Assembly: GCF_000022265.1 (NCBI RefSeq)
Contig: NC_011979.1
Span: forward strand, 3,660,001-3,692,000
Reading direction: 5' to 3'
Source of the DNA: Geotalea daltonii FRC-32
GTDB taxonomy: Bacteria; Desulfobacterota; Desulfuromonadia; Geobacterales; Geobacteraceae
Length of the DNA stretch: 32,000 bases
This document shows, piece after piece, positions 2,093 through 19,156 of the stretch. The stretch's first letter is position 1, and each line of letters starts with the position of its first letter. The position numbers and the translations under genes are program-made. The notes beneath the pieces were generated by a model. The model was not told the DNA's origin. It did not search any database and saw nothing but the letters and a program-made list of their open reading frames with translations.

Positions 2093-2131
2093 TGGTGAAG
2101 ACTGGCGATACAGAGGGTTAAGGGAGGAACC

Positions 2132-2713
2132 ATGATAGGCTTAATGTTCCTGGCAGCATTTGGCATCTACCTAGCTTTTTCAATTTGGGTCATCAAAACA
2201 ACCATAGCCTGGGCAAAAAGAACAGGCAGGGGAGTGAGACGATGGGGCTTAATTGCGTCACTTGTCATGTATCTGCTGGTTTTCTGGGACCATCTTCCTA
2301 CCCTGCTGCTGTACAAGTACTACTGCGCGACCAAAGCGGGCCTATGGGTTTACAAAACACCCGAGCAGTGGATGAAGGAAAATCCTGGCGTAGCAGAGAC
2401 ATTAACCTGGAAGGAAAACTCACCACAAGTAACTAATGGTACTGGAGATTTAATTTTGCAAGTCAATGAACGATTTGTATGGAGGGAAGCTGTTTCAAAG
2501 AGCCACATCCTCCCCGTTCGAATCAGCACTGAAACTATTGTTGATACAAAAAAGGATGAAGTTATGGTCAAACGTGTGAGTATCGGCGCTGGCTACAGGG
2601 GCAGTCTGGAGATGCTAAAATTCTGGACATCTATGGGACCCTGCATGCCTAAAATCAAAGAGTATGGATACTATCAAGACAGATTTCATAGAATGGGGAG
2701 GGGAATTAAATGA
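2132..2713 (+). CDS. Small membrane protein, paralog A (two N-terminal TM helices plus a ~130-aa C-terminal domain), function unknown
   Basis: ATG preceded by SD AAGGGAGGAA. TM1 IGLMFLAAFGIYLAFSIWVI, basic loop KRTGRGVRRW, TM2 LIASLVMYLLVFW. Shares motifs with the 2886..3524 product: PEQWMKENPGVAETL vs LEEWKRENPGVAKNL, VDTKKDEV vs VDTKTGQV, and C-termini GRGIK vs IGGIK. Its stop overlaps the next ORF start (ATGA at 2710-2713). Confidence 0.8.
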   Translation: MIGLMFLAAFGIYLAFSIWVIKTTIAWAKRTGRGVRRWGLIASLVMYLLVFWDHLPTLLLYKYYCATKAGLWVYKTPEQWMKENPGVAETLTWKENSPQVTNGTGDLILQVNERFVWREAVSKSHILPVRISTETIVDTKKDEVMVKRVSIGAGYRGSLEMLKFWTSMGPCMPKIKEYGYYQDRFHRMGRGIK

Positions 2714-2886
2714 GTGATCTTTCGAAGGTCGATGACACAGCAGCCTGGGGAAACGTAAGCTCTGTATATTTTTGGAATTCGGTTATTTTAAAGCTAACAG
2801 AAGTATCCACATTTACTATAAATGACGCCCTTGCCTGTGCTCATAACTTTATGAACAATAAAGGTGGCAAAAGGCTGGTGCCGTAA
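2710..2886 (+). CDS. 58-aa hypothetical protein, not in the supplied ORF track (below its length cutoff)
   Basis: Read by hand: MSDLSKVDDTAAWGNVSSVYFWNSVILKLTEVSTFTINDALACAHNFMNNKGGKRLVP. The ATG overlaps the upstream stop (ATGA, 2710-2713). Its TAA overlaps the downstream ATG (TAATG, 2884-2888). SD-like GGGGAGGGGA lies about 6 nt upstream. The ORF exactly fills the gap between the two paralogs. Confidence 0.55.
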   Translation: MSDLSKVDDTAAWGNVSSVYFWNSVILKLTEVSTFTINDALACAHNFMNNKGGKRLVP

Positions 2887-3524
2887 TGGCCAGTTTGCTT
2901 GTCCTTGCCGTTATAGGTGGATACATTATTCTCTCGGCTTTAGCTGTTTGTTTTGTTGTGCGTGCAGTTACTAAGGGCCGTAAAATAAAACTGGTAGCTG
3001 GAATTGTGGCAACCATAGTAGTAACTCTGCCGGTGACAACAGTGCTATTGGAATACGTCCAAACAAAGCATCGCCTAGAGCGCTATTGCAGAGAAGAGGC
3101 AAAAGTAATCATATTTAAGAGCCTTGAAGAGTGGAAGAGAGAAAATCCAGGCGTGGCAAAGAATTTAAAGCCCTATGACGATAAAAATGCGCCGGATATT
3201 ATAAGCAAAGGGGATGGGCTCCACAATAGTTCAACGACTAAATTCCTCAACCCAAGGTTTGCACACATAACTAAAAAAGAGGGGCCACTACAATTAAATG
3301 TGTTCAGACACTCAGAAGAATTGGTCGATACCAAGACAGGTCAAGTCATCGCCATCCTAACTGATTTCAGTTCTGGTTACGGCAACCCCTTTCTCGGAGC
3401 TAGGTATGGATGGCGCAGCTACAAAGTCTGGTTGGCCACGGATAACTGTCCTAGTTTTGATAAGAATGTAACTGTGTTTTCAAATTATTTCGAATCGATT
3501 AAGAACATAGGGGGGATAAAATAA
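2886..3524 (+). CDS. Small membrane protein, paralog B (two N-terminal TM helices plus a C-terminal domain), function unknown
   Basis: TM1 LLVLAVIGGYIILSALAVCFVV, basic loop KGRKIK, TM2 LVAGIVATIVVTLPVTTVLL. Paralogous to the 2132..2713 product (motifs listed there). Its stop overlaps the start of the giant gene (TAATG at 3522-3526). Confidence 0.8.
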   Translation: MASLLVLAVIGGYIILSALAVCFVVRAVTKGRKIKLVAGIVATIVVTLPVTTVLLEYVQTKHRLERYCREEAKVIIFKSLEEWKRENPGVAKNLKPYDDKNAPDIISKGDGLHNSSTTKFLNPRFAHITKKEGPLQLNVFRHSEELVDTKTGQVIAILTDFSSGYGNPFLGARYGWRSYKVWLATDNCPSFDKNVTVFSNYFESIKNIGGIK

Positions 3525-4520
3525 TGTTACAAAATAAAAATTTGTATCAACTGACCCAACTAGCTGAAGCTTCTTATGCTAACTTTTGGAACTCTGCTGT
3601 TAATCGACCATTTACGACTGCTGCAGATATTCAGCGACAACTTTCAGCCAAGGGCATTAATGATACCCAAGGCAAAGCAATAACTGACCATTGGTCAGTG
3701 GTCAGCCATCAAAAGAACACCGAACACGGTTTTTCCGCTACCGTATTTCAATCTAAAGACGCTTCGTCCCAATATGTACTTGCCATAAGGGGCACAGAAA
3801 CGGGAACGGGAACTATTGTAGACGACCTGATTAACTCCGACGGTGGCGATCTTGTCCGCGATGGCCTGGCGCTTGATCAGATAGTCGACCTCTATAACTA
3901 TTGGCAACAATTGACTTCTGCCAAAGGCTCCGTTTATCAAGCCGCTGTTTTTGAAACACTTACGGCGGAAACGGTTGCCTACAATGCTGCAGTTGCATCG
4001 GGACCGCTCGGTTTGACATATATTGCTTCCCTTCGTGCCCGAACAGACATAGTCATAGACGAACCCACCGGCCAGGTTCGAAAAATTCTGTTCGTCGATT
4101 CCAATGTTATCTACTCCGATAGTCGCAGCCAGGGACTCGGCGTTAACCCTGCCTCTGTAACAGTAGTCGGTCATTCGCTGGGTGGACACTTGGCAGCCGC
4201 CTTCTCTCGGCTCTTTCCTACAGCAACTACTGGCACTCTCATGATCAACGGCGCCGGATATGGTGACGGCTTTGCGATGGGGGCGGGAGGTAACGGACCT
4301 TCCAATGTAAACAACCTGTTCAGCATGCTTAATGGCACAAGCTCCTTCGATTCGAGCAATATAACAAATCTGGTCGGTTCGGCTGGAATGGACTTCGTTG
4401 CCCAGGACTGGTGGATTGGCTTGCACCAGCCCGGTTCGAAATTGACAATCCAAACGGAAAGCGCGAACCTGAGTACCACTTTCGGACATGGTTCCTCCCA
4501 AATGACGGACAGCATGGCTA
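3524..4520 (+). other. N-terminal lipase (class 3)-like alpha/beta-hydrolase domain of the giant protein (approximate bounds)
   Basis: The YVLAIRGTE strand motif and the nucleophile elbow VVGHSLGGHLAAAF (GxSxG; Ser codon at 4175-4177) are both typical of class-3 lipases. The Asp/His triad partners were not assigned by eye. Confidence 0.7.
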
Positions 4521-7500
4521 TCTACGACCTGCTCTTCCGCCTTGATACTAACCTAGCCGCAAGGAGCACTGCAGATGCCTTGGCACGGCTTGAGTCAACC
4601 TTCAAGTCCAGCAGCCCCACCGCAAACAACACCTTCGAATCTATCGTCAACACCCTGAGCAAACTACTTGTATCGGCTAACGCCACACCCATTCCTATCG
4701 CTAACAGAGAAGCGCTCTATGCCCGCATCAAGCAAATCAGGACCGCAATCGACAGCATACCTGCCGGTTCGGTAACTGTTGACCCCCTGCCGATCTACCC
4801 AGTTAGCACCATCATCAACATGGCCAAAGGTATCGACCTCAACACCAACGATTCTCTGGCTTATCGCTATGCGCTTAAGGAATTAAACCCCTTTGCTGTG
4901 CGCGGGCTTGATTACAGCAACGCCAACAAAAACGGTGAACTTAATCTGCTCAACATGAGCACCGGCCAAGGCAGCCTTTCAGAAGCATGGATTGCCGACC
5001 GCGCCGCCATGCTCTCCTGGATCATACAGGCCAATACCCTTGATCAGGGCACCGTTCCGACTTCCTTCAGCGATGGATCTGTCTGGCATTTCTCCGACTT
5101 GACCACCGGAAAATCCGTGAGGGCAGGTCAAGGCCTTTTTCCCCCTCGACATTACGTCATTTTCGGTAAGGAAGGGGCCGACACCATCACCGGTGGCGAG
5201 TATGCCGACCGCTTTTACGGCGCCGGCGGCAATGATGCCATGTATGGATATGGCGGCAACGACTACCTGGAAGGGGGCAAAGGTGACGATACTCTCTATG
5301 GCGGCAAGGGCAACGATATTCTTTACGGCGGGCAGGGATACGATACCTATATCTATAACATAGGCGATGGGACCGATACCATCGTTGACCAGGACAATCT
5401 GGGCCGCATCCTCATCAGGCGCAACGGGCAAACCATCCAGACCGGCACCCTGTACAGCAGAGGTAACAACATCTGGACCGATGCCAGCGGCAAGGTGCTT
5501 CTCACCCACAACTCCCCCTGGCGGTTGGTTCTTGAGGATGGCGGCATTATCGAGCTCGGCGAAAACTTCCAGGACGGCGATTTCGGCCTTGACCTGACCG
5601 AACTCCCAGCCAATAACATATCCAACACCATACTCGGCGATTACACTCCGGTGCCGGCGGAATCCAACGAATACCAGTATGATGCTATCGGCATTCCAAT
5701 CGCTAATGCGAAAACCGATTCTTTGGGCAACATAATTTACGATGCCACCGCACCTTCTCCCACGCGACGGGATTACCTGTATGACAGTGCCGGCAACGAC
5801 TTGATCAAGGCCGGCGGTGGCAGTGACATCATCAACGCAACCAGGGGAGGCGACAATATCATTGAAGGTGGCAGCGGCAGCGACATCGTAGCAGACTATG
5901 GCAATGGCAACAATGTCCTCTTTGGCGAGTTCCAAGGAGATATGGCCGATCTGGTCAGTGCGGGGGAAACTGCCGAAGGCATCAATGAAAAGGGTGACCT
6001 AGTCTCCTCCGGTAGCGGTAACGACCAACTGTATGGGTCGATTCGTAACGACGCCCTCTTTGGCGGTGGAGGAAATGACCTGCTGGTTGGCGGAGGCGGA
6101 AACGATACCATCCTTGCGGATGCAGCCATAAGCTCTGCCTCGCGGGAATGGAACGTCAACAACGCCGACTTCACAGGCCTTTCTTTCGATGAGGCATTGG
6201 TAGGCGGCATAGACAATATCTATGGGGGCAGCGGCAACGATATTATCTATGCCGGCGGAGGCAACGACAGCGTCGATGGCGGTATCGGTAACGACAATCT
6301 TTATGGCGAAGGAGGCAATGACTCCATCACCGGCGGTGGGGGTGACGACTTTATCCAGGGAGATGCCGACTGGCAGGCGTTGGATACCCACGGCAACGAT
6401 TATATTGACGGCGGCGCAGGTAATGACCGGATTGCCGGCCTGGGAGGCAATGACGAAGTATTCGGCGGTGATGGCAACGACGTACTTCAGGGAAATGACG
6501 GGGACGATTATTTGGATGGAGAAGCAGGTGATGACCTGTTGGTAGGAAATAATGGCAATGACCAGCTGATGGGTGGCGACGGCCTTGACGAAATGGCAGG
6601 TAACGAGGGAGACGACTATCTTGATGGCGAGGCCGGTGACGACAAGATGTATGGTGACGACGGCAAAGATGAGCTCTTTGGTGGCGATGGTAACGACTGG
6701 CTTGAAGGTAATAAGGACGGCGATTATCTGGATGGAGAAGATGGCGACGATGTCCTTCTTGGTGGAGAAGAAAATGATCGACTCTTCGGTGGTGAAGGTA
6801 ATGACCGTCTTCAGGGAGACATGGGCGACGATTATCTGGATGGGGAAGCCGGCAATGATAACCTGATGGGCCTCGAAGGTAACGACAGGCTCTTCGGTGG
6901 CGACGGCAACGACTTGTTGCAGGGAGGTGCCGGAGACGATTATTTCGATGGTGGCAACGGCGATGATGAATTGACGGGTGAAGCCGGCGACAACCGAATC
7001 TTCGGTGGTTCAGGCAATGATCGTCTACAGGGCGGTGTTGGTAATGATTACCTTAACGGCGGTGAAGGGGATGACAACCTGTATGGGGGTGATGGTACGA
7101 ATGTCCTGGTTGGAGGCTCAGGAAACGATACCTATTACATTGATCCGACCAGAGAAATAACGGAAATTTATGACAACTTCAATGGTGATGAACAAAACAC
7201 CATCAAGGTACTTGGTGACATAAATCTGGACAATGTAGTTACGGAGGTAAAAGACGGCAAACTTACCCTTACCTTGCGCACTAAACCCGATAACGGAAAC
7301 ACTGGCGGCAATTCCAGCGGTACAGTTGGCGAATGTGCTTCACAACTGGGTGATCCAATTACCTTTTACATCGGCAATGAAATTTCCTATGCAATCTATG
7401 ATCTGGGTTACACTCCCGGACCGATGACTGTGGAATCAGCTCTTATGCAGCTTGGCCTCCCGCTCCCCGGAGACAACGGCGGCTATTTGGATGAACAACA

Positions 7501-10500
7501 GCTTAGCCTGGACGAACTGGTGGCATTGAGCCGCGATCAGAATGAGGTGGATTTCTGCAGGGCCGGCTCTACCCCACCGAGCAGAAAACCGGATCCGCTC
7601 TTGGTTGACCTTGACGGTGACGGCATTGAAACAACCAGGATCAACACAACCACCTACTTTGACCATGATGCTAACGGAACCGCAGAACGAACTGCCTGGA
7701 TCGGTAAAGATGACGGCCTGCTTGTGATGGACAGGAACGGCGACGGTATTATCAACAACGGCCGGGAACTGTTCGGGGATAATACCTTGTTACGGAGCGG
7801 AAGTTTAGCAGGCGGCGGTTTTGCAGCCCTGACAGATCTGGATTCGAATAAGGATGGCAAAATCGATGCCACAGATCCAGGATTCGATCGCTTGCGGGTC
7901 TGGCAGGATGGTAACGGAGATGCCGTCAGCACGCCTGACGAACTGATTGACCTTTACACTCTTGGTATCAAGGAAATTGCACTGGCAACACAATCAGTAA
8001 ACGCACTCGACGGCAAAGGAAACACAATAGTCAGTAACGGCACATTCACTCGTGAGGATGGCAGTACAAGCACGATTGCCGAATATCGCCTTAAACGCAA
8101 CCTCACTCATACCATTTCTGCCGGTGGTACTGCCGGTGCTGACGAAGTGGCGACACTGCCGGAACTAAAGGGCTCAGGCAATCTTATCGACCTGAGTCAG
8201 GCAATGGCTGGCAACCCGGCATTGAAGACACTGGTGGGACAATTTTTGACTGAGGGCAGCGCCACCGCCCGTGCCGGCCTGATGGAGCAGATACTTTTTA
8301 CATGGTCGGGAGCCGATTCGGTAACTGCAGGTTCACGAGGTTGGTTTATAGACGCTCGCAAGGTGGCCTTCATCGAGGCATATATGGGCCGCGAGTTCAC
8401 CAGCAGATGGGGAAGCTCGCCCAACGATCAGGCGGCAATCCTCCTGGACAACATTTACCAGAGGGTTTCGGAAACCAGTTATGCCCAATTGATGATGCAG
8501 ACCCATCTACAAGACCTGTACAGCCAGGTGGAATGGAAATGGGATGATGCACAGCAACGGCAAGTAGCAGACCTGTCGCAGGTAACCGCGACCATTGCCG
8601 AAACCATGGCAACGGATGCTGAAGCAGGCAGGCAACTGCTCACAGAATTTGCCCGCACCTGGCGGGCATCCAATTCCACCAATAGCACTGCCTACCTTAA
8701 CTTCCGCGAGTACTTCATCAACATGGATCCAGATCTTGCCTGGATGATGGATACCGGCGGCCTGACCGCTACTGCATCCAGCTTCGGGACCAACAGATCG
8801 GAAGCTTTAGACGGCCGCACCATGTCGCAAACCTACCTGTCTTCGGGTGACGGAGACGATGTCCTCTATGCCGGTTCTGCCGATACAAAAATGTTCAGCA
8901 ATGGAGGCGATTCGCTCCTTGTCGGCGGCACCGGCAACGACTATTTAGTTGGAGGAGAAGGTTCAGATGTCCTGGAAGGGGGCAACGGCTACGATATTCT
9001 TACGGGCGGAGCTGGTAACGACACATATATCTTCAGGCGAGGAACAGGCATTGACTCGGTGTCGGATTATGGGATCAGCGCATCGCAGGACGTTATTTAT
9101 GTGGGTGATTTCATTACTGCGGAAGAAGTGTCCCTGCGAAGAACCGGAGACGATCTTGTTCTGACCATCACCGACAGCGGCGATCGGATGGTCGTCAAAA
9201 ACTGGTTCTGGAATGATACGTCACAGGTGGAACGTATACAGTTTGCCGATGGAACATTCTGGAATGTGGATACCATTAAAAAGAAGGTTTTGCAGGGTAC
9301 TGAAAATGCTGACATCCTTACTGGATACGAGTCGGATGATACCATTACGGGTTTGGACGGTAACGACCTTCTTAAGGGTGGCGCCGGCAATGACAGCCTG
9401 GATGGAGGGACAGGAAACGATTACCTTAGCGGAGGCTCAGGTAACGACACCTATCTGTTCGGCCGCGGCAGTGGCAGCGACGTTATAGAGGAAGTCGCTA
9501 ATCCTGCCACTGAGCAGAATATCGTGCAGCTGGGTGATGGGGTTGGACCGGACGACCTGGAATTTATGGTCACCGGAGAGGATCTCTTTATTGCTGTAAA
9601 AAACAGCAACGATCAACTCCAGATCAAAGGCTGGTTCGCTGCCGAACCGGCACGTATCGAAGAATTGCACTTTGCCGACGGCACCGTCTGGGATCGCAAC
9701 GCGATCTTGTCGATGATGGCTGTCCCCACCAATACGGACGACTATCTGGCCGGCACGCCCAACGGTGATCTTTTGAATGGCGGTGGTGGATATGATTCCA
9801 TCTACGGCTTTGGCGGCAACGACATCCTTATTGGCGGCAGCGAAGACGACTATATCGTGGGGGGGCAGGGCAACGACACGCTGGACGGCGGTGCGGGATA
9901 CGATGATCTGTATGACAACGACGGCACCAATAGGCTTTCCGGAGGTGCCGATGAGGATTATCTTGAGGTGGCCGGGGGCGTCAATGAATTGGATGGAGGC
10001 GCAGACAGCGATCGTCTGCTCACAACTGCCGGGAGCAATACCATCTTTTTCCGGCGAGGCGATGGCTTCGACTATGTGGAGACCTACCTGACATCGGCTT
10101 ACACTGTGGGTGACGCTGTTATATTTGGGGAAGGAATTCGCCCGGAGGATCTGAGCATCCAGATCAACGACAGCTCTATCAGTGGTGACGGGTACGGCGG
10201 AGAGATTCCCACATTTGTTCCAACTGCAGCCTTTGTCGATGGTGCATATGGTGGCGGATTCGGCAGTTCGGTCCAGTTAGCTATCGGCATCGGCAACGAC
10301 GAAGGCATGCTCATCACCGGAACCCCTGCCGATACAGGTTATGGCGGTGGCTATGGCGGAACGATCTTGAACCTGCATAACCTTTCCATACAACGGTTCG
10401 TCTTTGCCGACGGTCGGGAATTGTCCCTTGCGGACATAATTGGTATGGCTGACGAAGGTGTGATTGGTTATCAGACCTCCCCCTGGTGGGACAAGTTCCT

Positions 10501-13500
10501 CCTGGGGAGCGTCGCCAATGATGAGATCTACGGTAACTTCAACAATGACAAAATCGATGCCCGCGACTACGATGACTACCTTAATGGACAATACGGCGAT
10601 GATGCGCTCAGTGCCGGTTCGGGTCAGGACGACGTTTTCGGTGGTGATGGCGATGATGTGCTCGCCGGGGGACGCGGTGATGACTACTTGAGCGGTGGCT
10701 TCGGCAACGATGTCTACGCCTTCAACCGCGGCGATGGTCATGACTACATCGACAATTATCCCGGCACCGCCTACGGCGAAACCGACACCATTTCATTCGG
10801 CGTCGACATCCTCCCGGCCGATATCCGTGCAACGATTGACACCAGCACCGGCAATCTGGTGCTGAGCATAGCAGGAACAGACGATAACATTACCATCCCC
10901 TGGACCGACCCCAACAACGGCTTTGCCACCTTATCGGCAAGCGCAATAGCCAGGGTACAGTTCATCGATGCCGGCGGCAGCAACCGCATTTTCGATCTGG
11001 CAGGTCTCATCGAGGCCCACAAAGATGAACTGGTGGCGGCCGCCACGACCCCGGTCAGCCTCTTTGGAGCCGACGCAGACACCTTTGAGTTGACCGGCAC
11101 CGTCGATGCTGCCGGCTGGCAGTATGCGGTGGCCTATGCCCAGACTGGCGATCTTTTTGCCGAGCCCAACTACCTTTATGGTTCCTGGGGTAACGACACC
11201 ATCACCGGGCGTGCCGGTGACGACACCTTGGAAGGGGGTTACGGCGACGACCGCCTTGCCGGCGGTTCAGGCGACGACACCTACGCCTATTACCAGTGGG
11301 ACGGTAACGATACCATCGACGACGTCTCCACCCCGGGGGATCCTAACTCCCTTTTATTCGGCTACGGCATCACCCCTGATGACATCACCTTGAGTCACGA
11401 CAAGGGACAGGGTCAATTAATACTGAACATCTTGACTACCGGTGAGACCATACGTATCAATCACTTTGTCGCTGACGACCCCTATGGCCCCCATGCGGTG
11501 GAGTACTTCAAGTTCGATGACGGGACTGTGCTGACCTGGAGCCAGATGATCGACAAGGGCTTTGACATCATCGGCAGCTCCTGGGACGACGACCTGCCGG
11601 GCACTGCCACTACCGACAGAATTTCCGGCAACGAAGGAAACGATTTTATTGCCGCTGGAAGGGGCGATGACATTCTTGCCGGCGGTAATGGTGACGACTT
11701 CTATCACTACAACCCCGGCGACGGAATCGACCGTATCAATGATCTTTCTCTTCCCGGTGAAGAGAACACCCTTGCCTTCGGTGAAGGAATCGCTCTGCCC
11801 GATATAACCCAGCGGCTGACCTATCGTGATAATACATTGATCATCCGTGTCGGCGATGGTGGCGACGAAATTCATCTCAGCAACTTCGACCCCAATCAAG
11901 CCGACAGCGGCCCAAGAGCCATTCAGACTTTTACCTTTGCCGATGGGACCAGCATTACCTATGAGGATCTGGTCAAAAACACCTTCATTCTTCAGGGAGA
12001 TACCACCAATGATGCAATCCGCGGCACCAATCTGAGTGATCGCCTCTACGGGTACGAGGGAAGCGATTGGTTGGATGCAGGCGAAGGCAACGACACTCTT
12101 ACCAGTGGGACAGGCGATGATGAACTTGAGGGGGGCACAGGAAACGATGCCTATGTTTTCAATTTGGGCGACGGTGTTGATACCATTTCGGATTCTGCAA
12201 CTCTTGAGGAAGGCAACATTATTCACTTCGGCGCCGGCATTACCGCTGCCGATCTACGGACCAGGATTGACGGAAACACCCTGGTCATCGAGTACGGAAA
12301 CGGTGGCGACGCCATAATCCTCGATAATTACGATTACAGTGGATTAAACGGTTCACATGTGGTTGAACACATCGAATTCGCCGATGGCTCCATCATAAGG
12401 CTGGCCAGCCTCGTCGATCCCGGTACTGAAGGCAATGACCTAATCTTTGGCACTCCTTTCGATGACGTCATCAATGCCAAAGGTGGCGATGATGAGGTTT
12501 ACGGCCTTGCCGGCAATGATCATCTCTCAGGTGGAACAGGCAGCGACCGCCTGGACGGAGGCGACGATGAAGACATTATCGATGGTGGAGGGGGAAATGA
12601 CACGCTTACCGGGGGCAAAGATTTCGATACCTATCTCTTCAACATCGGCGATGGTTCCGATGTGATCGTCGATGCCGCAGACAAAGGAATCGGCAACATC
12701 GCGGCCTTCGGAACAGGAATTACCCGGAACGACGTCTCATTGACCGTGGATGGTAATGATCTGCTCATCACCTACGGCGGGTCCGGCGACCAGATCAGAG
12801 TGATAAACTACAATCCTACGGGCCGGCGCAGTGATTTGCCGGTAAGTGCCCTGCAGTTTGCCGATGGTTCTACCATGTACCTGCAGGAGCTTATAAATCA
12901 GGCTCCTGCAATAGGCACCTCACTGATCGATCAAAGTGCGACGGAAGACACGGCCTTCACCTTACGACTCCCCGATGATGCCTTCATAGATCCAGAAGGA
13001 CTGCCTATGAGTTACCGGTTGAGTGGTCCGGGCAATGCCCCCCTTCCCTCTTGGATCATTTTCAATCCGGTTACCCGTACTCTGAATGGGACACCCGGCA
13101 ATGGAGACGTCGGAATCCATGAGGTCGTAGTAACCGCGTATGACGACCTTGGCACCACGAGCCGGCGCTCTTTCTTCGTAACTGTTCAGAACACCAACGA
13201 TGCCCCGGTAGTTGTAGAAGCTATCCCAGCACAGAACGTACTGGAAGACAGTCCTTTCAGTTACCGGATACCTGCAGCAGCCTTCGACGACATAGACGCC
13301 GGTGATTCTCTGACACTGTCCGCAGCCCTGTCCGACGGAGCTCCGCTGCCGGCATGGCTGCAGTTCGACGCTGCCACCGGCACATTCAGCGGCACTCCGG
13401 GGAACGATGATGTGGGGAGCCTGAGCATAAACGTCACCGCCACAGACCTGGCCGGAGCTGCTGTCGACAATGCCTTCGACCTGACTGTGGAGAACGCCAA

Positions 13501-15238
13501 CGATGCCCCGGTTGCAGTGACGCCGCTGACGCCTCAAAATGCCGTCGAAGACCTGCCGTTCTCCTACAGCATTCCCGCCGATACCTTCAACGACATGGAC
13601 AAAGGTGATTCTCTGACACTTTCCGCCACCCTGGCAGATGGTTCGGCACTGCCCGCCTGGCTGCAGTTCGATGCTGCCACCGGGACCTTCACCGGCACCC
13701 CCGACAACAGCAATGTGGGAGCATATCAACTTTCGGTAACGGCCACCGACCTGGCTGGAGCCGCCGCCTCCACCGACCTTGGCCTCACCGTGGCAAATGT
13801 CAATGACGCGCCCGTTGTCAACGGCGTCGTCACCGACCAGGTTGCCCAGAGTGGTCACCTGGTCAGCTTCGCCATCCCCACCGGGCTTTTTGCGGATGTG
13901 GACAAGGGTGACATCCTCACCATCTCCGGGACAAACGGCGACGGCTCCCCCCTCCCCGCCTGGCTGACCTATGACCAGGCAAGCGGCACCATGTCCGGCA
14001 CCCCTGACAATTCCGCCATAGGCAGTCACACAATATGTTTGACCGCCACAGACCAAGCCGGAGCACAGGTCGATACCTCCTTCACCATGGAGGTACTGAG
14101 AAACAGGCTGCCAATAGCTGTTCCGGACACCGCCGAACTGGATGAAGACGGTCCCTCTCCCTCCGTGACCGGCAACGTCCTCGCCAACGACAGCGATCCG
14201 GATCTGGGAGACGTTCTCACCGTTGCAGACCCCGGGGTCAGGGAGGGGGAATACGGCTATCTGGGTCTCTCCGGCGACGGCAGGTACGGATACATACTGG
14301 ACAACCTGTCCGAAGACGTTCAGTCACTGGGGCGCTCAGCCCAGGTAACAGAACATTTCGACTACACCGTCACCGACGGTGAAGACGCGGTTCCCTCTTC
14401 CCTGGAAATAACCATCAGGGGAAAGAACGATGCCCCTATTCTAGAGGAGCATCTGGACGACCGGCGGATCAAAAAAGGGAAAGAATTCAGCTTCTCCATC
14501 GATTCCGACAGCTTCGAGGACGCTGACGAGGGCGATGCCCTCACCTACACCGCCACCTTGGCCGACGGCACTGCCCTGCCCGATTGGCTGAAATTCGACG
14601 GCACGACCGGCATCTTCTCCGGTACAGCGCCGAAAACTGCCGGTTACCTGGACATCAAGGTAACCGCCACCGACATGGTGGAAGCCACCGGCAGTACGGA
14701 AGGAAGCCTCTCCGTTTCCGATACCTTCGAATTGAGCTTCGGCAAGAGCAGGAAGGAGTCTGACGACCGTCGCAAAGACGATCACCGTGAAGACAAGCTG
14801 GACTGGATGAAAAAGGCCGGACCCGGCCATCGCGAGGATGAGCAAGGTAGCTTCAGGCCCGGCCATGACGATGACCATGACCATGGCCATGACCGCAGGC
14901 GCAGTGAGGATCATTCTGTCTCGAATGGCAACGATTACCTTGACAGGCAGCGGCTTGATGATTTCCTGCAGGACTTTGATCAGCCCTCTCCCGGCACTGA
15001 CCGCGAGATTGCCACACGCTGGCAGGCAGTAAGCGATGCGCTGAAAGAGGAGCTCGCGGACTTCGACAACGACTTCGGTAACCATCGCAAACAATCCGGC
15101 GACTTCTCCTTCATGAACTATGACCACGGATCCGGCTTTGGCAGGGGCATTGTCGATAGCAGTCTGTTGACCGCCGGCAGCGGGACCGAGCTTAAGGACT
15201 TCAAGGGTCTTAAGGAAGGGCTGCGGAGATTGGGATAA
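3524..15238 (+). CDS. Giant (3904 aa) RTX-family Ca-binding repeat protein with an N-terminal class-3 lipase/alpha-beta hydrolase domain and C-terminal cadherin-like repeats; presumed cargo of the flanking T1SS
   Basis: A single uninterrupted ORF. G-rich SD (TAGGGGGGAT) upstream and no N-terminal signal peptide. Contains dozens of GGxGxDxUx nonapeptides. It sits between HlyB-type and HlyD-type genes on the same strand. Domain sub-features are listed separately. Confidence 0.96.
   Translation: [3904 protein letters not shown]
5180..5350 (+). repeat. RTX nonapeptide block 1
   Basis: [57 protein letters not shown]. Confidence 0.85.
5780..7140 (+). repeat. RTX nonapeptide block 2 (about 450 aa of near-continuous GGxGxDxUx repeats)
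   Basis: Runs from [34 protein letters not shown] to [11 protein letters not shown]. Most 9-aa units fit the parallel beta-roll consensus. Confidence 0.9.
6495..7142 (+). repeat. Six tandem copies of a 108-bp (36-aa, four-nonapeptide) super-repeat inside RTX block 2
   Basis: The unit anchor GA(C/T)TAT(C/T)T(G/T)GATGG recurs every 108 nt (for example GATTAT at 6506 and 6722, GACTAT at 6614). Protein units follow [36 protein letters not shown]. Confidence 0.85.
7600..7960 (+). other. Cluster of EF-hand/dockerin-like DxDxDG Ca-binding loops
   Basis: [53 protein letters not shown]. Followed at about 8100-8770 by a non-repetitive, apparently helical segment (..[37 protein letters not shown]..). 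Confidence 0.6.
8846..12900 (+). repeat. Eight divergent modules, each with a few RTX nonapeptides followed by a haemolysin-type Ca-binding-protein-related beta domain
   Basis: Recurrent pattern: GNDTYxFxxGDGxDxIxD .. FGxGIxxxDL .. GxDLxIxxxxxxDxIxIxNxF .. IExxxF(A/D)DG(T/S). The F(A/I/D)DG anchor codons start at 9242, 9671, 10403, 10961, 11513, 11936, 12377 and 12857, all in frame. Confidence 0.8.
12900..14740 (+). repeat. Cadherin-like/dystroglycan-type Ig repeats: four tandem ~300-bp copies, a VCBS-like unit (~14100-14430), then a fifth copy
   Basis: Each copy has the pattern EDxxFxxxIPxxxFxDxDxGDxLTxSAxLxDGxxLPxWLxFDxxTGTFxGTPxNxxVG..VTATD..NDAP. The LPxWL anchors lie at about 13044, 13346, 13649, 13950 and 14575. 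Copies 2 and 3 are spaced exactly 303 nt apart and share long near-identical nucleotide runs. The VCBS-like unit reads [33 protein letters not shown]. Confidence 0.8.
14740..15238 (+). other. C-terminal charged, His/Asp-rich low-complexity tail ending in a putative T1SS secretion signal
   Basis: [90 protein letters not shown]. No RTX nonapeptides occur in the last ~800 aa. The signal assignment rests on position only. Confidence 0.4.
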
Positions 15239-15261
15239 TAAAACCTGTCAAGCGAGGAGGG

Positions 15262-15345
15262 ATGTTGGTGCAAAGCCATATCCCTTCTCGTTCGCCATGG
15301 TTTCTGCTCTTGAGAAGCCACAAAAAGATCGGATCATGTAATTGA
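15262..15345 (+). CDS. Cryptic 27-codon ORF (MLVQSHIPSRSPWFLLLRSHKKIGSCN) immediately upstream of the radical SAM gene; speculative
   Basis: Strong SD GAGGAGGG at 15254-15261, followed by clustered ATG(15262)/TTG/GTG(15268) starts. Its TGA stop (15343-15345) overlaps the TTG start (15342-15344) of the radical SAM gene, which has no SD of its own. Caveats: the SD/start region can also fold into a hairpin (15259-15268 with 15276-15284), and a 27-codon open frame arises easily by chance. Confidence 0.3.
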   Translation: MLVQSHIPSRSPWFLLLRSHKKIGSCN

Positions 15346-16130
15346 AAACTGCCACAAGTAGTCATACCAGCTTCATTCAGATAGAGATCACCACGATCTG
15401 CAACTTCGACTGTTTCTACTGCGCAGGGAGAAATATGCCCCAGCGACACATGGGCCTGGATCTCTTCAACACAATACTGGCATCACTACCACTAGAACCT
15501 TGCACAATCTCGCTTCAGGGAGAGGGAGAACCGACTCTTCATCCCCATTTCATTTCAATGGCAAAGCAGGTGATCGAAGCGGGCCATATTCCCTATACCA
15601 TTACCAACTGCAGCTGTCTTGATGCCAGTGTCATCGCCGAAGTTTTCCCCCAGATCGGCGTATCGCTGGACACGCTGGACCCGGGTGAAGCGCAGCGCCT
15701 TGGACGGCATGACCTGCGGCAGGTGGTGGAAAACCTGGACCGGCTTCTCCAAAGGATGGGGCCTGACCGAGTCATCCTGCATACGGTAAATTACGGACAG
15801 CAAATGGAACGATTTACCAAGCTCGTTGAGAGCAGAGGGTTTTCCCGTCATATCGTTCAACCCCTGCAAATGAAGGACGATTATCGGAAGCGGTACTGCA
15901 ACGTACCTGTGGGGCCGCAGGGATGGAAATCTGCCCATTACTTAGGCTGCCGCTATCTGCAGCAGCCGCTCATGCGTTACTTCGATGTGAACGGCCGGGA
16001 GATGCCCTGCTGTTATATCAAGGATGCATCCAAATTTGTGTCGACGGATCATGCGCGCAGCGTAATGGGCCAGGGCAGAGTGCCCGACTGCTGCGCAGGC
16101 TGCCGTGAAATTACCATGGGGCGATCATGA
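15342..16130 (+). CDS. Radical SAM enzyme with a C-terminal half-SPASM/Twitch-like Cys motif (262 aa)
   Basis: FIQIEITTICNFDCFYCAGR carries CxxxCxxC. The C-terminus has C-X14-G-X4-C (CRYLQQPLMRYFDVNGREMPC) and then CC-X2-C (DCCAGC). The only in-frame start upstream of the cluster motif is TTG at 15342, directly after a TAA. Its stop overlaps the next gene (ATGA 16127-16130). Confidence 0.85.
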   Translation: MKTATSSHTSFIQIEITTICNFDCFYCAGRNMPQRHMGLDLFNTILASLPLEPCTISLQGEGEPTLHPHFISMAKQVIEAGHIPYTITNCSCLDASVIAEVFPQIGVSLDTLDPGEAQRLGRHDLRQVVENLDRLLQRMGPDRVILHTVNYGQQMERFTKLVESRGFSRHIVQPLQMKDDYRKRYCNVPVGPQGWKSAHYLGCRYLQQPLMRYFDVNGREMPCCYIKDASKFVSTDHARSVMGQGRVPDCCAGCREITMGRS

Positions 16131-17356
16131 GCCGCTTCATGCTGGCATGGGAGCTTGGCGGCAACTATGGCCATCTGGGCAAACTGGTCCCTCTGACGCA
16201 TGCAATCAAAGACAAGGGACATGACGTGGCCCTTGCTGTAAGAGATCTTGCCGCACTGGGGAAATGCCTGGACCGCACGGCTGCGACCCTCCTGCAGGCA
16301 CCCATTGACTCACACCCGAGAAGAAAGTGCCAGCCGGTCAGTTTCGCCGATATCCTGGACGATGTGGGTTTCGGCAGTCCCGAGCGCCTTGATGGGCTGG
16401 TGCGTGGCTGGCACGGCCTCTTTGATCTCTACCGGCCCGAGGTAGTGGTGGCGGAATACGCGCCGTCAGCCGTATTTGCCGCCAGGCTGGCAGGCATACC
16501 CTGTCTGAGGATGGACACGGGCTTCGCCATTCCGCCGGACGTGAGCCCTTATCCCTGTTTCCGCCCCTGGCTCAAGCTGCGGCGGGAACAGCTGTTGGAA
16601 AAAGAGACGGGCATGCTGCAGGCCATAAACCAAGTTCGCGAAGACTATGGTTATTCTGCCCATGAGCATCTCTTTCAGGCAGTGCAGGCCGACCTGACCC
16701 TGCTGACAACGGTGCCGGAGCTTGATCACTACCCGGCGCGCAAGGGAGGGCGCCATATCGGCCCTCTGTTGAACTTGGATACAGGGCAGGATATCCCCTG
16801 GCCTGGCGGAAACGGACCGCGAATATTTGCCTATCTGCATCCCTTTCCAGGACTTGGACTGGTACTGGATGGACTCAGGAACTGCGGCGGTCAAACCATT
16901 GCCGTGGTTCCCGGTATCAGCCAGGAAATTTGCGACCGGTATAGGGGCAGCAAATTTTCGATCTCCGACCAACCGGCGACATTGCGGCATATTTTGCCCA
17001 AAGCGGAATTGGTCGTTTCCCATACCGGCCATGGCCTGACCTCGGCTGCACTGCTGGCAGGGGTGCCAACCTTGGCGATACCGACCCAGATCGAACAGAT
17101 GATGCTGATGAGAACTATCGAACGACTTGGTACCGGTACTGGTGTTACCCCCAATGCACTACGGACACATTTTCAGGAAATCCTGCAGAAGACCCTTGCC
17201 GATCAGGAGATTACCCACCGAACCCAAGAGCTTGCAGCCAAGTACAGTCGGTATGATGAACGGAGAACCTTGGCTCGTCTGATAACAACCATTGAGCGAC
17301 TGCCTGAAACCATCATAAACAGGCAGCCCGATAAACAGGAGAAAACATACAGATGA
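16127..17356 (+). CDS. GT-B fold glycosyltransferase, GT1/MGT (UDP-glycosyltransferase)-like (409 aa)
   Basis: N-terminus FMLAWELGGNYGHLGKLVPLTHAIKDKGHDVALAV (GT1 acceptor-domain pattern). The C-terminal donor-binding signature VVSHTGHGLTSAALLAGVPTLAIPTQIEQ resembles the UDPGT motif. ATGA overlaps at both ends (16127-16130 and 17353-17356). Confidence 0.82.
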   Translation: MSRFMLAWELGGNYGHLGKLVPLTHAIKDKGHDVALAVRDLAALGKCLDRTAATLLQAPIDSHPRRKCQPVSFADILDDVGFGSPERLDGLVRGWHGLFDLYRPEVVVAEYAPSAVFAARLAGIPCLRMDTGFAIPPDVSPYPCFRPWLKLRREQLLEKETGMLQAINQVREDYGYSAHEHLFQAVQADLTLLTTVPELDHYPARKGGRHIGPLLNLDTGQDIPWPGGNGPRIFAYLHPFPGLGLVLDGLRNCGGQTIAVVPGISQEICDRYRGSKFSISDQPATLRHILPKAELVVSHTGHGLTSAALLAGVPTLAIPTQIEQMMLMRTIERLGTGTGVTPNALRTHFQEILQKTLADQEITHRTQELAAKYSRYDERRTLARLITTIERLPETIINRQPDKQEKTYR

Positions 17357-18771
17357 ATGAGCAGCATTCAGCAAAACCTTCCGGCTTGGTGAGACTGTCC
17401 TCTAGGCTGTTCAATGCCGCTGAAACAGATTCGCTGGACTTTGCCCCCTCCATGGTTCAATTGCAGGAGAAGCCACCGGCACCGCTGGGACGGACCGTGT
17501 TGAAGGTTGTGGCGATACTGTTCTGTTGCGTCCTGCTGTGGGCTATTCTGGGGCGGCTGGATATCGTGGCGGTGGCGGAAGGCAAGCTGGTGCCGAAGAC
17601 TTACCTGAAGATCGTGCAGCCTTCTGAACAGGGAATCGTGGAGGATATCCTTGTCAAGGAGGGGCAGTCGGTTACCAAGGGGCAACTCCTGATGCGGATG
17701 GATGCGGTACTCTCCACTGCGGAAGGTAACTCCCTTACTTCTGAATTCCACCGCTTGCGGCTTGGCCTGCGCCGCATAGATGCAGAGCTGGCAGGCAGGC
17801 AGCTTACCCGCGAGAGTGGCGACCCGCCTGATCTGTTCGCCCAGGTATCGGCGCAATACCACACCAACCGTCAGGCCCAGCAGAGTGCCATCGATGAGCA
17901 ACAGAGCGTGCTGGAGCGTGCCCGCCAGGATATGGCTTCGGCCCGGGAAATCAAGGCAAAGCTTGAGCAGACACTGCCCCATTACCGTGAACAGGAAAGG
18001 GCCTACGAGGATCTTTTTAAAACAGGGACGGTTGCAAAGCTTCAGTTTTCTGAAAAGCAACGGGACCGGATCGAGAAGGAACATGACCTGAGAACCCAGG
18101 AGTTCACCATGAAAAGTAATCAGGCGCTGATGGCCCAGGCCCAGAAGAAGATGGCTCAGATCACGGCAGAAAACCGGCGCCAGTTGCAAATCGAACGGGT
18201 TGAAAGCATGGGACAGTTTGAGAAAATCAGGCAGGAGTTGGCCAAGCAGCAGCACCGTCACCAGTTACTGGAGCTGAGGGCACCGGACGACGGCGTTGTC
18301 AAGGATCTGGCCACACATACAACAGGTACGGTTGTGACGCCAGGGACCATTCTGATGACTTTGGTGCCCAAGGAAGAACCGCTGCAGGCCGAGGTATGGG
18401 TAAGCAACGAGGATATTGGTTTCGTGCGTCCCAATCAGCCGGTGAAGGTCAAGCTGTCCGCTTTCACCTTCCAGAAATACGGAATGCTTAACGGGAAAGT
18501 GGAACAGGTCAGCGCCGATTCCAGCGAAAACCAAGGCCAGACCGGAACGATCGATTCGACTACTTCAGCTCCGCCCAAGGACCTGAGCCGCCTGCGCTAC
18601 AAAACCCTGGTGACGCTCTCCACCCAGCAACTCATGGCAGATGGACAAAAGCACAAATTAACCCCCGGCATGCAGGTGTCGGCCGAGATAAAATTGGGCA
18701 CGAGATCGGTGGTGGAATACCTTTTCTCACCGGTAACAAAGGCGTTCCATGAGGCGGGGCGAGAACGGTAG
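17353..18771 (+). CDS. Type I secretion membrane fusion protein, HlyD family (472 aa)
   Basis: N-terminal cytoplasmic segment plus a single TM (VLKVVAILFCCVLLWAILG). Then DIVAVAEGKLVPKTYLKIVQPSEQGIVEDILVKEGQSVTKGQLLMRMD (lipoyl/barrel pattern as in HlyD), a long coiled-coil Q/E/R-rich middle, and a C-terminal beta-barrel ending in RSVVEYLFSPV. Confidence 0.94.
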   Translation: MNEQHSAKPSGLVRLSSRLFNAAETDSLDFAPSMVQLQEKPPAPLGRTVLKVVAILFCCVLLWAILGRLDIVAVAEGKLVPKTYLKIVQPSEQGIVEDILVKEGQSVTKGQLLMRMDAVLSTAEGNSLTSEFHRLRLGLRRIDAELAGRQLTRESGDPPDLFAQVSAQYHTNRQAQQSAIDEQQSVLERARQDMASAREIKAKLEQTLPHYREQERAYEDLFKTGTVAKLQFSEKQRDRIEKEHDLRTQEFTMKSNQALMAQAQKKMAQITAENRRQLQIERVESMGQFEKIRQELAKQQHRHQLLELRAPDDGVVKDLATHTTGTVVTPGTILMTLVPKEEPLQAEVWVSNEDIGFVRPNQPVKVKLSAFTFQKYGMLNGKVEQVSADSSENQGQTGTIDSTTSAPPKDLSRLRYKTLVTLSTQQLMADGQKHKLTPGMQVSAEIKLGTRSVVEYLFSPVTKAFHEAGRER

Positions 18772-19079: not shown

Positions 19080-19156
19080 TGGCGTCCCCGAGACGATTCG
19101 AACGTCCGACCCCTTCCTTAGGAGGGAAGTGCTCTATCCTGCTGAGCTACGGGGAC
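19080..19156 (-). tRNA. tRNA-Arg (anticodon CCU)
   Basis: 77 nt. The reverse complement reads GTCCCCGTAGCTCAGCAGGATAGAGCACTTCCCTCCTAAGGAAGGGGTCGGACGTTCGAATCGTCTCGGGGACGCCA. Acceptor stem GTCCCCG/CGGGGAC; D arm GCTC..GAGC; anticodon stem CTTCC/GGAAG with loop CTCCTAA (anticodon CCT); T arm GGACG-TTCGAAT-CGTCT; CCA is encoded. Confidence 0.95.

Follow-up and report, generated by a model that had tools for sequence, protein, structure and literature searches.

The question raised by this locus is what a radical S-adenosylmethionine enzyme (rSAM) and a glycosyltransferase (GT) are doing inside a type I secretion system (T1SS) operon, between the gene of a giant repeats-in-toxin (RTX) protein and hlyD. 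The operon lies in a stretch of 32,000 nucleotides from Geotalea daltonii FRC-32 (NC_011979.1, positions 3,660,001 to 3,692,000), which as a whole is called the window here and whose first letter is position 1. A first-pass annotation, made from the letters of the window, had proposed a new cargo-maturation chemistry, in which the two enzymes act as a pair on either the giant protein or a cryptic small peptide. The part of this proposal that directs the enzymes at the giant cargo remains the best reading, whereas the peptide substrate and the fixed pair do not hold. We consider the chances about even that the GT glycosylates the giant cargo and that the rSAM tailors that modification.

Organization of the operon

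On the + strand the genes follow one another in the order hlyB, three small genes, the gene of the 3904-aa RTX protein, the 262-aa rSAM, the 409-aa GT of family GT1, and hlyD. The open reading frame (ORF) coordinates agree with the one-strand gene order given in the first-pass annotation. The rSAM and GT products match database entries for G. daltonii FRC-32 at 100% identity. The main features are the following.

2..2092, + strand: HlyB-type T1SS ABC permease/ATPase; ORF open to position 2 at the left window edge
3524..15238, + strand: giant RTX cargo, 3904 aa, with HemolysinCabind repeats
14954..15235, + strand: C-terminal domain of the cargo, ~94-95 aa, ending GLKEGLRRLG, defined by an alignment and a hidden Markov model (HMM) built here
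15342..16130, + strand: radical SAM enzyme, 262 aa, with PF04055, CX3CX2C and a four-Cys Twitch-like C-terminal motif
16127..17356, + strand: GT-B fold GT1-family glycosyltransferase, 409 aa, from PDB profile search and fold search
17353..18771, + strand: HlyD-family T1SS periplasmic adaptor (TIGR01843 333.8 bits, cut-off 208.65)

The rSAM and GT genes overlap in ATGA 16127-16130, and the GT and hlyD genes in ATGA 17353-17356; both overlaps had been reported at first pass and can be read directly in the sequence. The upstream junctions overlap likewise (ATGA 2710-2713, TAATG 2884-2888, TAATG 3522-3526). The start/stop overlaps on the two sides of the GT gene bear out the claim that both enzymes are part of the secretion operon. 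The rSAM and GT genes are thus shown to be translated as part of the operon, and they are also shown to be conserved as its members.

HlyB, HlyD and an RTX cargo are all present in the operon, which places it among the T1SS operons. The exporter scores 170 bits for ABC_membrane and 119 bits for ABC_tran in Pfam. Its best model is that of HlyB protein exporters (TIGR01846, type_I_sec_HlyB; 581.8 bits over model positions 75-660, cut-off 725.55), and the models of bacteriocin peptidase-exporters score lower. The window edge truncates the gene, which explains both the absent N-terminus and the score below the cut-off; the first start of this ORF inside the window is GTG 128. There is no TolC gene in the window, and one is present in the relatives L076, L020 and L164 (L numbers denote loci). 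None of the accessory proteins of the operon matches an acyltransferase model in Pfam or NCBIfam, as a locus of the hlyCABD type would have.

The two enzymes

The GT clearly belongs to family GT1, with a GT-B fold. A PDB profile search gave a Bacillus UGT at E = 6e-19, followed by YjiC, CalG1 and OleD. The structure model (predicted local distance difference test score, pLDDT, 90) matched VinC, CalG1 and EryCIII in Foldseek at E ~1e-18, with TM scores of 0.65-0.70 to VinC, CalG1 and OleD. The UDPGT-like donor motif that had been pointed out earlier is present as HTGHGLTSAALLAGVPTLAIPTQIEQ, and across 21 homologues neither P314, P319 and E323 nor G15-H16 vary, with Q324 found in 90% or more of them. 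The homologues carry PF06722, and the window GT itself scores 30.1 bits against EryCIII-like_C, just below the cut-off of 31.7. The macrolide GT subfamily model (TIGR01426, MGT) gives 47.7 bits against a cut-off of 260, over a C-terminal stretch only. Pfam, NCBIfam and PDB searches with the GT return only families of the GT1/GT28 type, and neither HMW1C/GT41 nor TibC/Aah.

The rSAM starts at a TTG codon, the sole possible start 5' of the cluster motif. It belongs to the radical SAM superfamily (PF04055, 50.3 bits, cut-off 29.5) and carries CNFDCFYC (C20/C24/C27), C203-x14-G218-x4-C223 and C250-C251-x2-C254. These are the motifs named in the first-pass annotation, and C20, C24, C27, C203, C223, C251 and C254 are invariant in 20 homologues. 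The description of the enzyme as half-SPASM may be kept as far as the cysteine signature of the first half goes, but no SPASM model is found among the Pfam and NCBIfam matches at E <= 0.01, and there are four conserved C-terminal cysteines where SPASM has seven. By its sequence features the rSAM is predicted to be a four-Cys Twitch-like enzyme, not a seven-Cys SPASM enzyme. No curated NCBIfam subfamily cut-off is reached: the best scores are 61.5 bits for the tungsten-cofactor maturase (cut-off 380), 48.4 for viperin and 35.5 for MoaA, and NF033640 (N_Twi_rSAM) gives 21.6 bits against 170. The profile-HMM searches that had been suggested for both enzymes thus yield a secure superfamily match for the rSAM, no SPASM match, and for the GT a model just missed; neither the rSAM family nor the GT family is covered by a Pfam or NCBIfam model.

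The rSAM also lacks the features of a maturase of peptides that are synthesized ribosomally and modified post-translationally (RiPPs): there are 19 residues before the cluster motif, no RiPP recognition element (RRE) or PqqD-like domain, and no conserved precursor. The structure model (pLDDT 86) has CteB, DesII, MoaA, BtrN, BlsE, viperin, SuiB and EpeE as fold neighbours, of which CteB is the best Foldseek match (E = 1.4e-9). It is about equally like the peptide-acting (CteB, SuiB, EpeE) and the sugar- or nucleotide-acting (DesII, BtrN, BlsE, viperin, MoaA) members, and because the two kinds match about equally, the fold gives no substrate class. Because the enzyme is four-Cys and Twitch-like and has no peptide-recognition domain, it need not act on peptides. 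The step from half-SPASM to a peptide substrate, which the first-pass annotation had taken, is therefore not upheld.

Gene neighbourhoods of the GT

The survey of GT relatives drew on at least 518 metagenome loci, of which the best 80 were kept. A T1SS/RTX link is found in 26 of the 80; almost always the linked gene shares the strand of the GT and is no more than two genes away from it, and the usual orders are cargo-GT-HlyD and HlyD-GT. Another 11 are linked to type V secretion (T5SS; TpsA with TPS domain, TpsB of the ShlB/POTRA type, or autotransporter beta-domains). Of the 37 loci that are 10 kb or longer, 25 have a GT linked to T1SS or T5SS. Other neighbours of the GT include an RHS toxin, a 1550-aa GLUG protein and a 1353-aa Ig-repeat protein. 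When the GTs are clustered at 70% identity, the 85 clusters fall into 27 T1SS, 8 T5SS, 4 RHS and 8 ruv contexts and 38 that are other or too short, and the clade to which a GT belongs goes with the kind of secretion context.

What these neighbourhoods have in common is a giant exported protein rather than a single export machine. Since the neighbours of the GT share a very large exported protein whatever the machine, a protein acceptor is favoured. A window-type rSAM occurs in only 3 of the 80 GT loci, and never in those linked to T5SS. Therefore, the GT is the commoner partner of the secreted giants.

In a plasmid collection the rSAM had no match, and GT matches came only from Ralstonia megaplasmids and from one Pseudomonas plasmid. 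The Ralstonia megaplasmid records with a GT relative number 14, and the matched stretch carries no annotated gene in them. On the R. solanacearum PSI07 megaplasmid (NC_014310.1, 324093-349262; L164), a GT relative (34% identical) follows hlyB-hlyD-tolC, and neither an rSAM nor an RTX gene lies within 12 kb. Ralstonia solanacearum is a culturable carrier of the GT relative.

Sulfotransferases stand near the GT in two loci. At L020:4332-5162, in a T1SS locus, the order is GT-rSAM-TolC-sulfotransferase, while HlyD and HlyB are encoded on the other strand; at L125:7347-9236 a TPR-sulfotransferase fusion lies next to the GT and an RHS toxin. These enzymes may represent a further tailoring step.

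Gene neighbourhoods of the rSAM

For the rSAM, one genome per species was taken, giving 72 loci with relatives at 39-57% identity, whose neighbours were mapped by tblastn, phmmer and ORF clustering. A locus was counted as T1SS-linked if it encoded HlyB, HlyD or a giant protein that has 17 or more RTX nonapeptides. By this definition 20 of the 72 species have a T1SS-linked rSAM, and in a neighbour-joining tree these enzymes occupy six or more separate deep clades. Closer relatives come from metagenomes (58-62% identity); the three closest were looked up, and 4/4 loci are T1SS-linked. The order giant RTX, rSAM, GT, HlyD is repeated in L001, L029, L036, L054, L073, L074 and L135, and the overlap of the rSAM and GT genes is retained in L073, L074 and L076. 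A GT lies within 5 kb of the rSAM in 35 of the 72 loci, rSAM-GT2 fusions counted.

The neighbourhood check is accordingly a mixed one for the earlier proposal: the rSAM-GT order does recur beside T1SS and giant RTX genes, but about half of the rSAM relatives stand elsewhere, with no GT or secretion gene nearby. The first-pass annotation had named as fatal to its proposal that the orthologues normally lie away from T1SS genes in a known unrelated role. Many do lie away from T1SS genes, and none is in a context with a known unrelated role. Contexts other than secretion include genes for ApbE and flavodoxin reductase, for DsbB, RraA and MatE, and for oxidoreductases. Three further loci with rSAM and GT adjoin RHS-repeat toxins.

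A further context is that of a monophyletic clade of 13 Burkholderiales loci, in which the rSAM stands between ruvB and ybgC-tolQ-tolR.

~position 10000 in each of L003, L004, L005, L017, L019, L025, L026, L028, L030, L031, L034, L039 and L045: ruvB-ybgC loci

A GT partner is found in 11 of the 13 loci of this clade. It is either a GT2 domain carried on the rSAM itself or a separate GT1, for which one or two genes lie between ruvC and ruvA.

Several individual loci may be mentioned here. GT and rSAM lie beside flagellar export genes (fliQ, fliR, flhB, flhA, fliK and flgE/F/G-like) at L022:1542-7875 and L050:11946-18235, and in L022 an RHS/AHH toxin is on the other side. Three T1SS loci (L013:8981-9838, L037:8566-9426, L054:11967-12824) encode, besides the rSAM, a conserved 285-aa protein (cluster 173) that matches nothing in Pfam or NCBIfam. 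A PKHD-type 2-oxoglutarate oxygenase near some rSAM loci was considered and is probably incidental, its context being iron-uptake-like.

Linkage of the rSAM to glycosyl transfer

An exhaustive rSAM profile search, yielding 127 representative clusters at E <= 1e-30, revealed natural fusions (proteins denoted by P numbers). Pfam-checked examples are the GT1-rSAM fusions P0185 and P0205, in which GT1 is N-terminal, the rSAM-GT2 fusions P0182, P0183 and P0186, in which GT2 is C-terminal, and P0200, in which the rSAM is fused to a CapK-like adenylating enzyme. P0184, of like size, is probably also an rSAM-GT2 fusion. P0185 lies directly 3' of an ORF of at least 2512 aa, and the rSAM-GT2 fusions are the long rSAM ORFs of the ruvB-ybgC loci. 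In L038 the order is cargo, rSAM and a separate CapK-like gene.

In addition, T1SS loci encode a second family of small rSAMs (264-270 aa) immediately 3' of the GT. This family shares its cysteine layout with the window rSAM family but can be aligned to it over the core only, and it reaches no curated Pfam or NCBIfam cut-off. Its eight members count as one lineage because they are 88-91% identical. The features are the following.

L157:7558-9633: natural rSAM fusion
L097:11194-12006, with further members in L086, L088, L090, L096, L099, L107 and L108: second rSAM family

The fusions are shown to link rSAM and GT to each other. Because of the adjacency of the genes, the fusions, and the non-orthologous replacement of GT1 by GT2, the rSAM is tied to glycosyl transfer.

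The giant cargo

The RTX repeats of the cargo score 470.7 bits for PF00353 in 18 stretches, and the other domains are He_PIG (five copies), HCBP_related (five), Big_9 and cadherin-like domains. The N-terminus carries a GHSLGG motif of the alpha/beta-hydrolase-like kind; it has no Pfam or NCBIfam match, and the label 'lipase' used at first pass is an unconfirmed reading of that motif.

At the other end, residues 3811-3904 score 94 bits against the C-terminal-domain HMM, and no NCBIfam model matches this domain. The domain, with its end GL.EG..RLG, is common to the giants in L001, L002, L013, L029, L036-38, L054, L056, L057 and L073-75. It is also present in the giants of 12 loci of the GT survey, 11 of these without rSAM. 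The domain presumably represents the secretion signal region.

The cysteine content was used to assess two known rSAM chemistries. Cross-linking of the cargo by thioethers (sacti or ranthi) is unlikely, because the cargos hold few or no cysteines: there are only 3 in the 3904 aa of the window cargo and 0-7 among the cargos, with none in the visible 3325 aa of the L029 cargo. An anSME-type formylglycine maturase is rejected as well, there being no second auxiliary-cluster motif and no sulfatase domain.

Proposed role of the two enzymes

In the mechanism considered here, the GT1 enzyme would be a cytoplasmic GT dedicated to the giant secreted protein, and would move a sugar from a nucleotide sugar to the unfolded RTX cargo before or during HlyB/HlyD export. 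The rSAM would bind one extra [4Fe-4S] cluster via its four conserved cysteines and would perform a radical tailoring of the sugar, either on the donor or on the attached residue, or of the modified residue; its chemistry is putative. In a wider and more tentative form, to which we give somewhat less than an even chance, the GT1 subfamily may be a widespread protein GT for RTX (T1SS), two-partner, autotransporter and RHS proteins, to which the small Twitch-type rSAM adds a radical step in the T1SS and RHS contexts. In that case this enzyme, in some proteins fused to GT1 or GT2, would have been recruited two or more times, and its step would leave the cargo with an unusual sugar or linkage.

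Several observations weigh against cargo glycosylation by this pair. The closest solved relatives of the GT all use small molecules (macrolides, enediynes, flavonoids), the cargo is an acceptor that we infer, and the cargos have no obvious common acceptor motif beyond the C-terminal domain. There is no GT within 5 kb of 37 of the 72 rSAM relatives; as most of the T1SS-linked GT relatives in turn have no rSAM, the fixed rSAM-GT pair envisaged at first pass is not supported. Many rSAM relatives lie amid housekeeping genes (ruvB-ybgC-tolQ, ApbE/flavodoxin reductase, DsbB/RraA), and in Duganella (polyketide synthase-acyl carrier protein (ACP)-GT-ABC) and Albitalea (YcaO) the contexts are like those of natural products. 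Finally, an internal promoter could lie inside the 103-nt spacer between cargo and rSAM, where a weak promoter-like site is seen at 15310-15337; such sites are no commoner than in shuffled sequence.

Alternative explanations

The GT and rSAM might instead make or modify an envelope glycolipid or small glycoconjugate, which serves as surface anchor, receptor or separately exported product. We regard this main rival as unlikely, though of appreciable weight. The solved relatives just mentioned all take small lipophilic acceptors, and sugar-acting Twitch-type rSAMs (BtrN, DesII, BlsE, AprD4) are among the fold neighbours. One rSAM clade sits inside the ruv/ybgC/tol-pal envelope cluster, and in Duganella the rSAM stands between the genes of a fatty acyl-AMP ligase (FAAL)-ACP-ketosynthase (KS) synthase and ACP-GT-ABC genes. 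There is also a precedent in Caulobacter, where O-antigen genes flank the rsaA T1SS genes and are required for attachment of the S-layer. Yet the GT family tracks giants across T1SS, T5SS and RHS, for which a protein acceptor is the simpler explanation. In at least 20 T1SS loci, moreover, the GT gene directly adjoins that of cargo, HlyD, HlyB or TolC, nearly always on the same strand, and Pfam and NCBIfam reveal no lipid or sugar-nucleotide biosynthesis genes in the window operon. In the Duganella locus (L023:4965-14909), the FAAL-ACP-KS synthase is divergent from rSAM-ACP-GT-two unknown genes-ABC transporter.

A role in self-protection or latency, in which glycosylation silences a toxic giant in the producer or modifies the producer's own target, appears quite improbable. 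Macrolide GTs protect antibiotic producers, and the window GT is nearest to the macrolide/OleI/MGT group in NCBIfam, though far under the cut-offs. Polymorphic toxins (RHS with AHH nuclease tip, TpsA) are among the GT neighbours, and the GHSLGG N-terminus of the cargo occurs together with two small upstream membrane paralogues that could be immunity proteins. These are two of the three small genes.

2132..2713, + strand: small predicted membrane protein, 193 aa, with a hydrophobic N-terminus in translation
2710..2886, + strand: 58-aa ORF overlapping both neighbours (ATGA 2710-2713, TAATG 2884-2888)
2886..3524, + strand: small predicted membrane protein, 212 aa, with a TAATG overlap with the cargo start at 3522-3526

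The products of 2132-2713 and 2886-3524 are paralogues (27.5% identity, E = 5e-14). The three genes have no Pfam or NCBIfam match and no homologue in 156 related loci, and they lie at the GC minimum of the window (44.8% at 2001-4000, compared with 52-59% elsewhere in the operon). The small proteins could be immunity or accessory proteins for the hydrolase-like N-terminus of the cargo. Many giants are, however, adhesin- or enzyme-like, as seen from the cadherin/Ig-rich tail of the window cargo and the glucosaminidase N-terminus of that in L073, and a polymorphic toxin survey (PMC3482391) names no such immunity mechanism.

It is very improbable that the rSAM and GT are mere passengers in the operon, with a function unrelated to secretion. 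This would agree with the unrelated neighbourhoods of about half of the rSAM relatives. Against it, no fewer than six rSAM clades and, at 70% identity, 27 GT clusters show the association, several phyla and classes are represented, and the T1SS-linked frames are usually overlapping or adjacent. By a rough estimate, about 1 T1SS-linked locus per 72 would be expected by chance, in contrast to the 20 observed.

The last alternative, a RiPP-like one, concerns the spacer of 103 nt between cargo and rSAM, which contains a 27-aa ORF (15262-15345) and the following feature.

15251..15292, + strand: 17-bp RNA hairpin just 3' of the cargo stop, no U-tract

The fold of 15225-15360 has an energy of -42.7 kcal/mol (z = -3.26 against 200 shuffles). 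The hairpin includes the Shine-Dalgarno-like GAGGAGGG and the start of the 27-aa ORF, and its 5' arm is the apparent Shine-Dalgarno sequence. The ORF has no tblastn match at E <= 10 in the 156 related loci. The cargo gene overlaps the rSAM gene in L074 and is separated from it by 56 nt in L073, which leaves no room for the ORF; nor is the hairpin kept in these two loci. The ORF is therefore rejected as a precursor peptide gene, on account of its missing homologues, its position inside the hairpin and the relatives that have no spacer, and the cryptic peptide that the first-pass annotation had offered as a possible substrate falls with it. A system in which the T1SS exports a small peptide, from this ORF or from elsewhere, after maturation by the rSAM together with the GT is barely credible: the likeness of the rSAM's C-terminal cysteine motif to the first half of SPASM, the presence of CteB, SuiB and EpeE among its fold neighbours, and the Albitalea pair beside a YcaO/nitroreductase fusion are outweighed by the fate of the ORF, by the missing RRE/PqqD-like domain, and by an exporter that best fits the HlyB protein-exporter model. 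The Albitalea terrae locus (L033:7930-12945) consists of a sigma factor, GT, rSAM and the YcaO/nitroreductase fusion. The hairpin may moderate expression 3' of the cargo, or set the ratio of cargo to downstream products.

Relation to known systems

The reading in which the giant cargo is glycosylated and tailored may be compared with established maturation systems. Acylation of the HlyC type, in which lysines are acylated from acyl-ACP, is the established maturation step of RTX proteins. The module resembles HlyC/CyaC in that a dedicated cytoplasmic enzyme encoded in the T1SS/RTX operon would modify the unfolded cargo before export. It differs in chemistry and fold, and no such acyltransferase is present in the G. 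daltonii operon; whereas hlyC precedes the toxin gene, the rSAM and GT genes here lie between cargo and hlyD.

Closer to the proposed GT reaction are HMW1C/NGT (GT41), which acts with the two-partner adhesin HMW1, and the heptosyltransferases TibC/Aah, which act with the autotransporters TibA/AIDA-I. In these systems, too, the GT gene adjoins that of a very large secreted protein, with cytoplasmic modification before export as is proposed here, and part of the window GT1 family adjoins TpsA/TpsB and autotransporter genes. In contrast, the window GT is of an unrelated family (GT-B GT1, of the macrolide/UGT type), and its protein acceptor is putative. These systems offer no parallel to the rSAM partner or to the association with T1SS and RHS.

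As for the rSAM, BtrN (a 2-deoxy-scyllo-inosamine dehydrogenase) and MoaA share with it a CX3CX2C core, a C-terminal beta-hairpin cysteine motif, which would hold one auxiliary cluster, and small size, the BtrN chains having 269-270 aa. They are neighbours in fold and sequence, at only 13-16% identity. With SPASM maturases (CteB, SuiB, anSME, PqqE) it shares the first half of the SPASM cysteine signature, but it has four conserved C-terminal cysteines instead of seven, no RRE and no conserved precursor peptide.

Glycosylated proteins of the RTX/T1SS type have been reported before, namely SwmA of Synechococcus and oscillin of Phormidium (PMC3034196). These resemble the window cargo in type and come from different organisms. 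That review assigns no GT to SwmA or oscillin, and links neither a GT1 enzyme nor an rSAM to them. In full-text literature searches, no account of T1SS operons with an rSAM or a GT1 enzyme came up; the first-pass annotation, too, had known of no described T1SS/RTX system with an rSAM-GT pair. That a secreted cargo has its own modifying enzyme is already known from HlyC, HMW1C and TibC; the rSAM/GT1 module appears new, and its biochemistry is predicted from sequence.

If the GT1 subfamily does glycosylate giant exported proteins, whether or not the rSAM takes part, it would represent a new family of bacterial protein glycosyltransferases, and type I secretion would acquire a second kind of cargo maturation. 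Radical SAM chemistry would then act on substrates of megadalton scale or on their glycans. A GT gene next to that of the cargo would also provide a simple genomic marker for modified adhesins and toxins, including those of Ralstonia solanacearum.

Downstream boundary

One further feature lies ~300 nt beyond the hlyD stop.

19080-19156, - strand: tRNA-Arg(CCT)

This tRNA gene may mark the edge of an acquired island.

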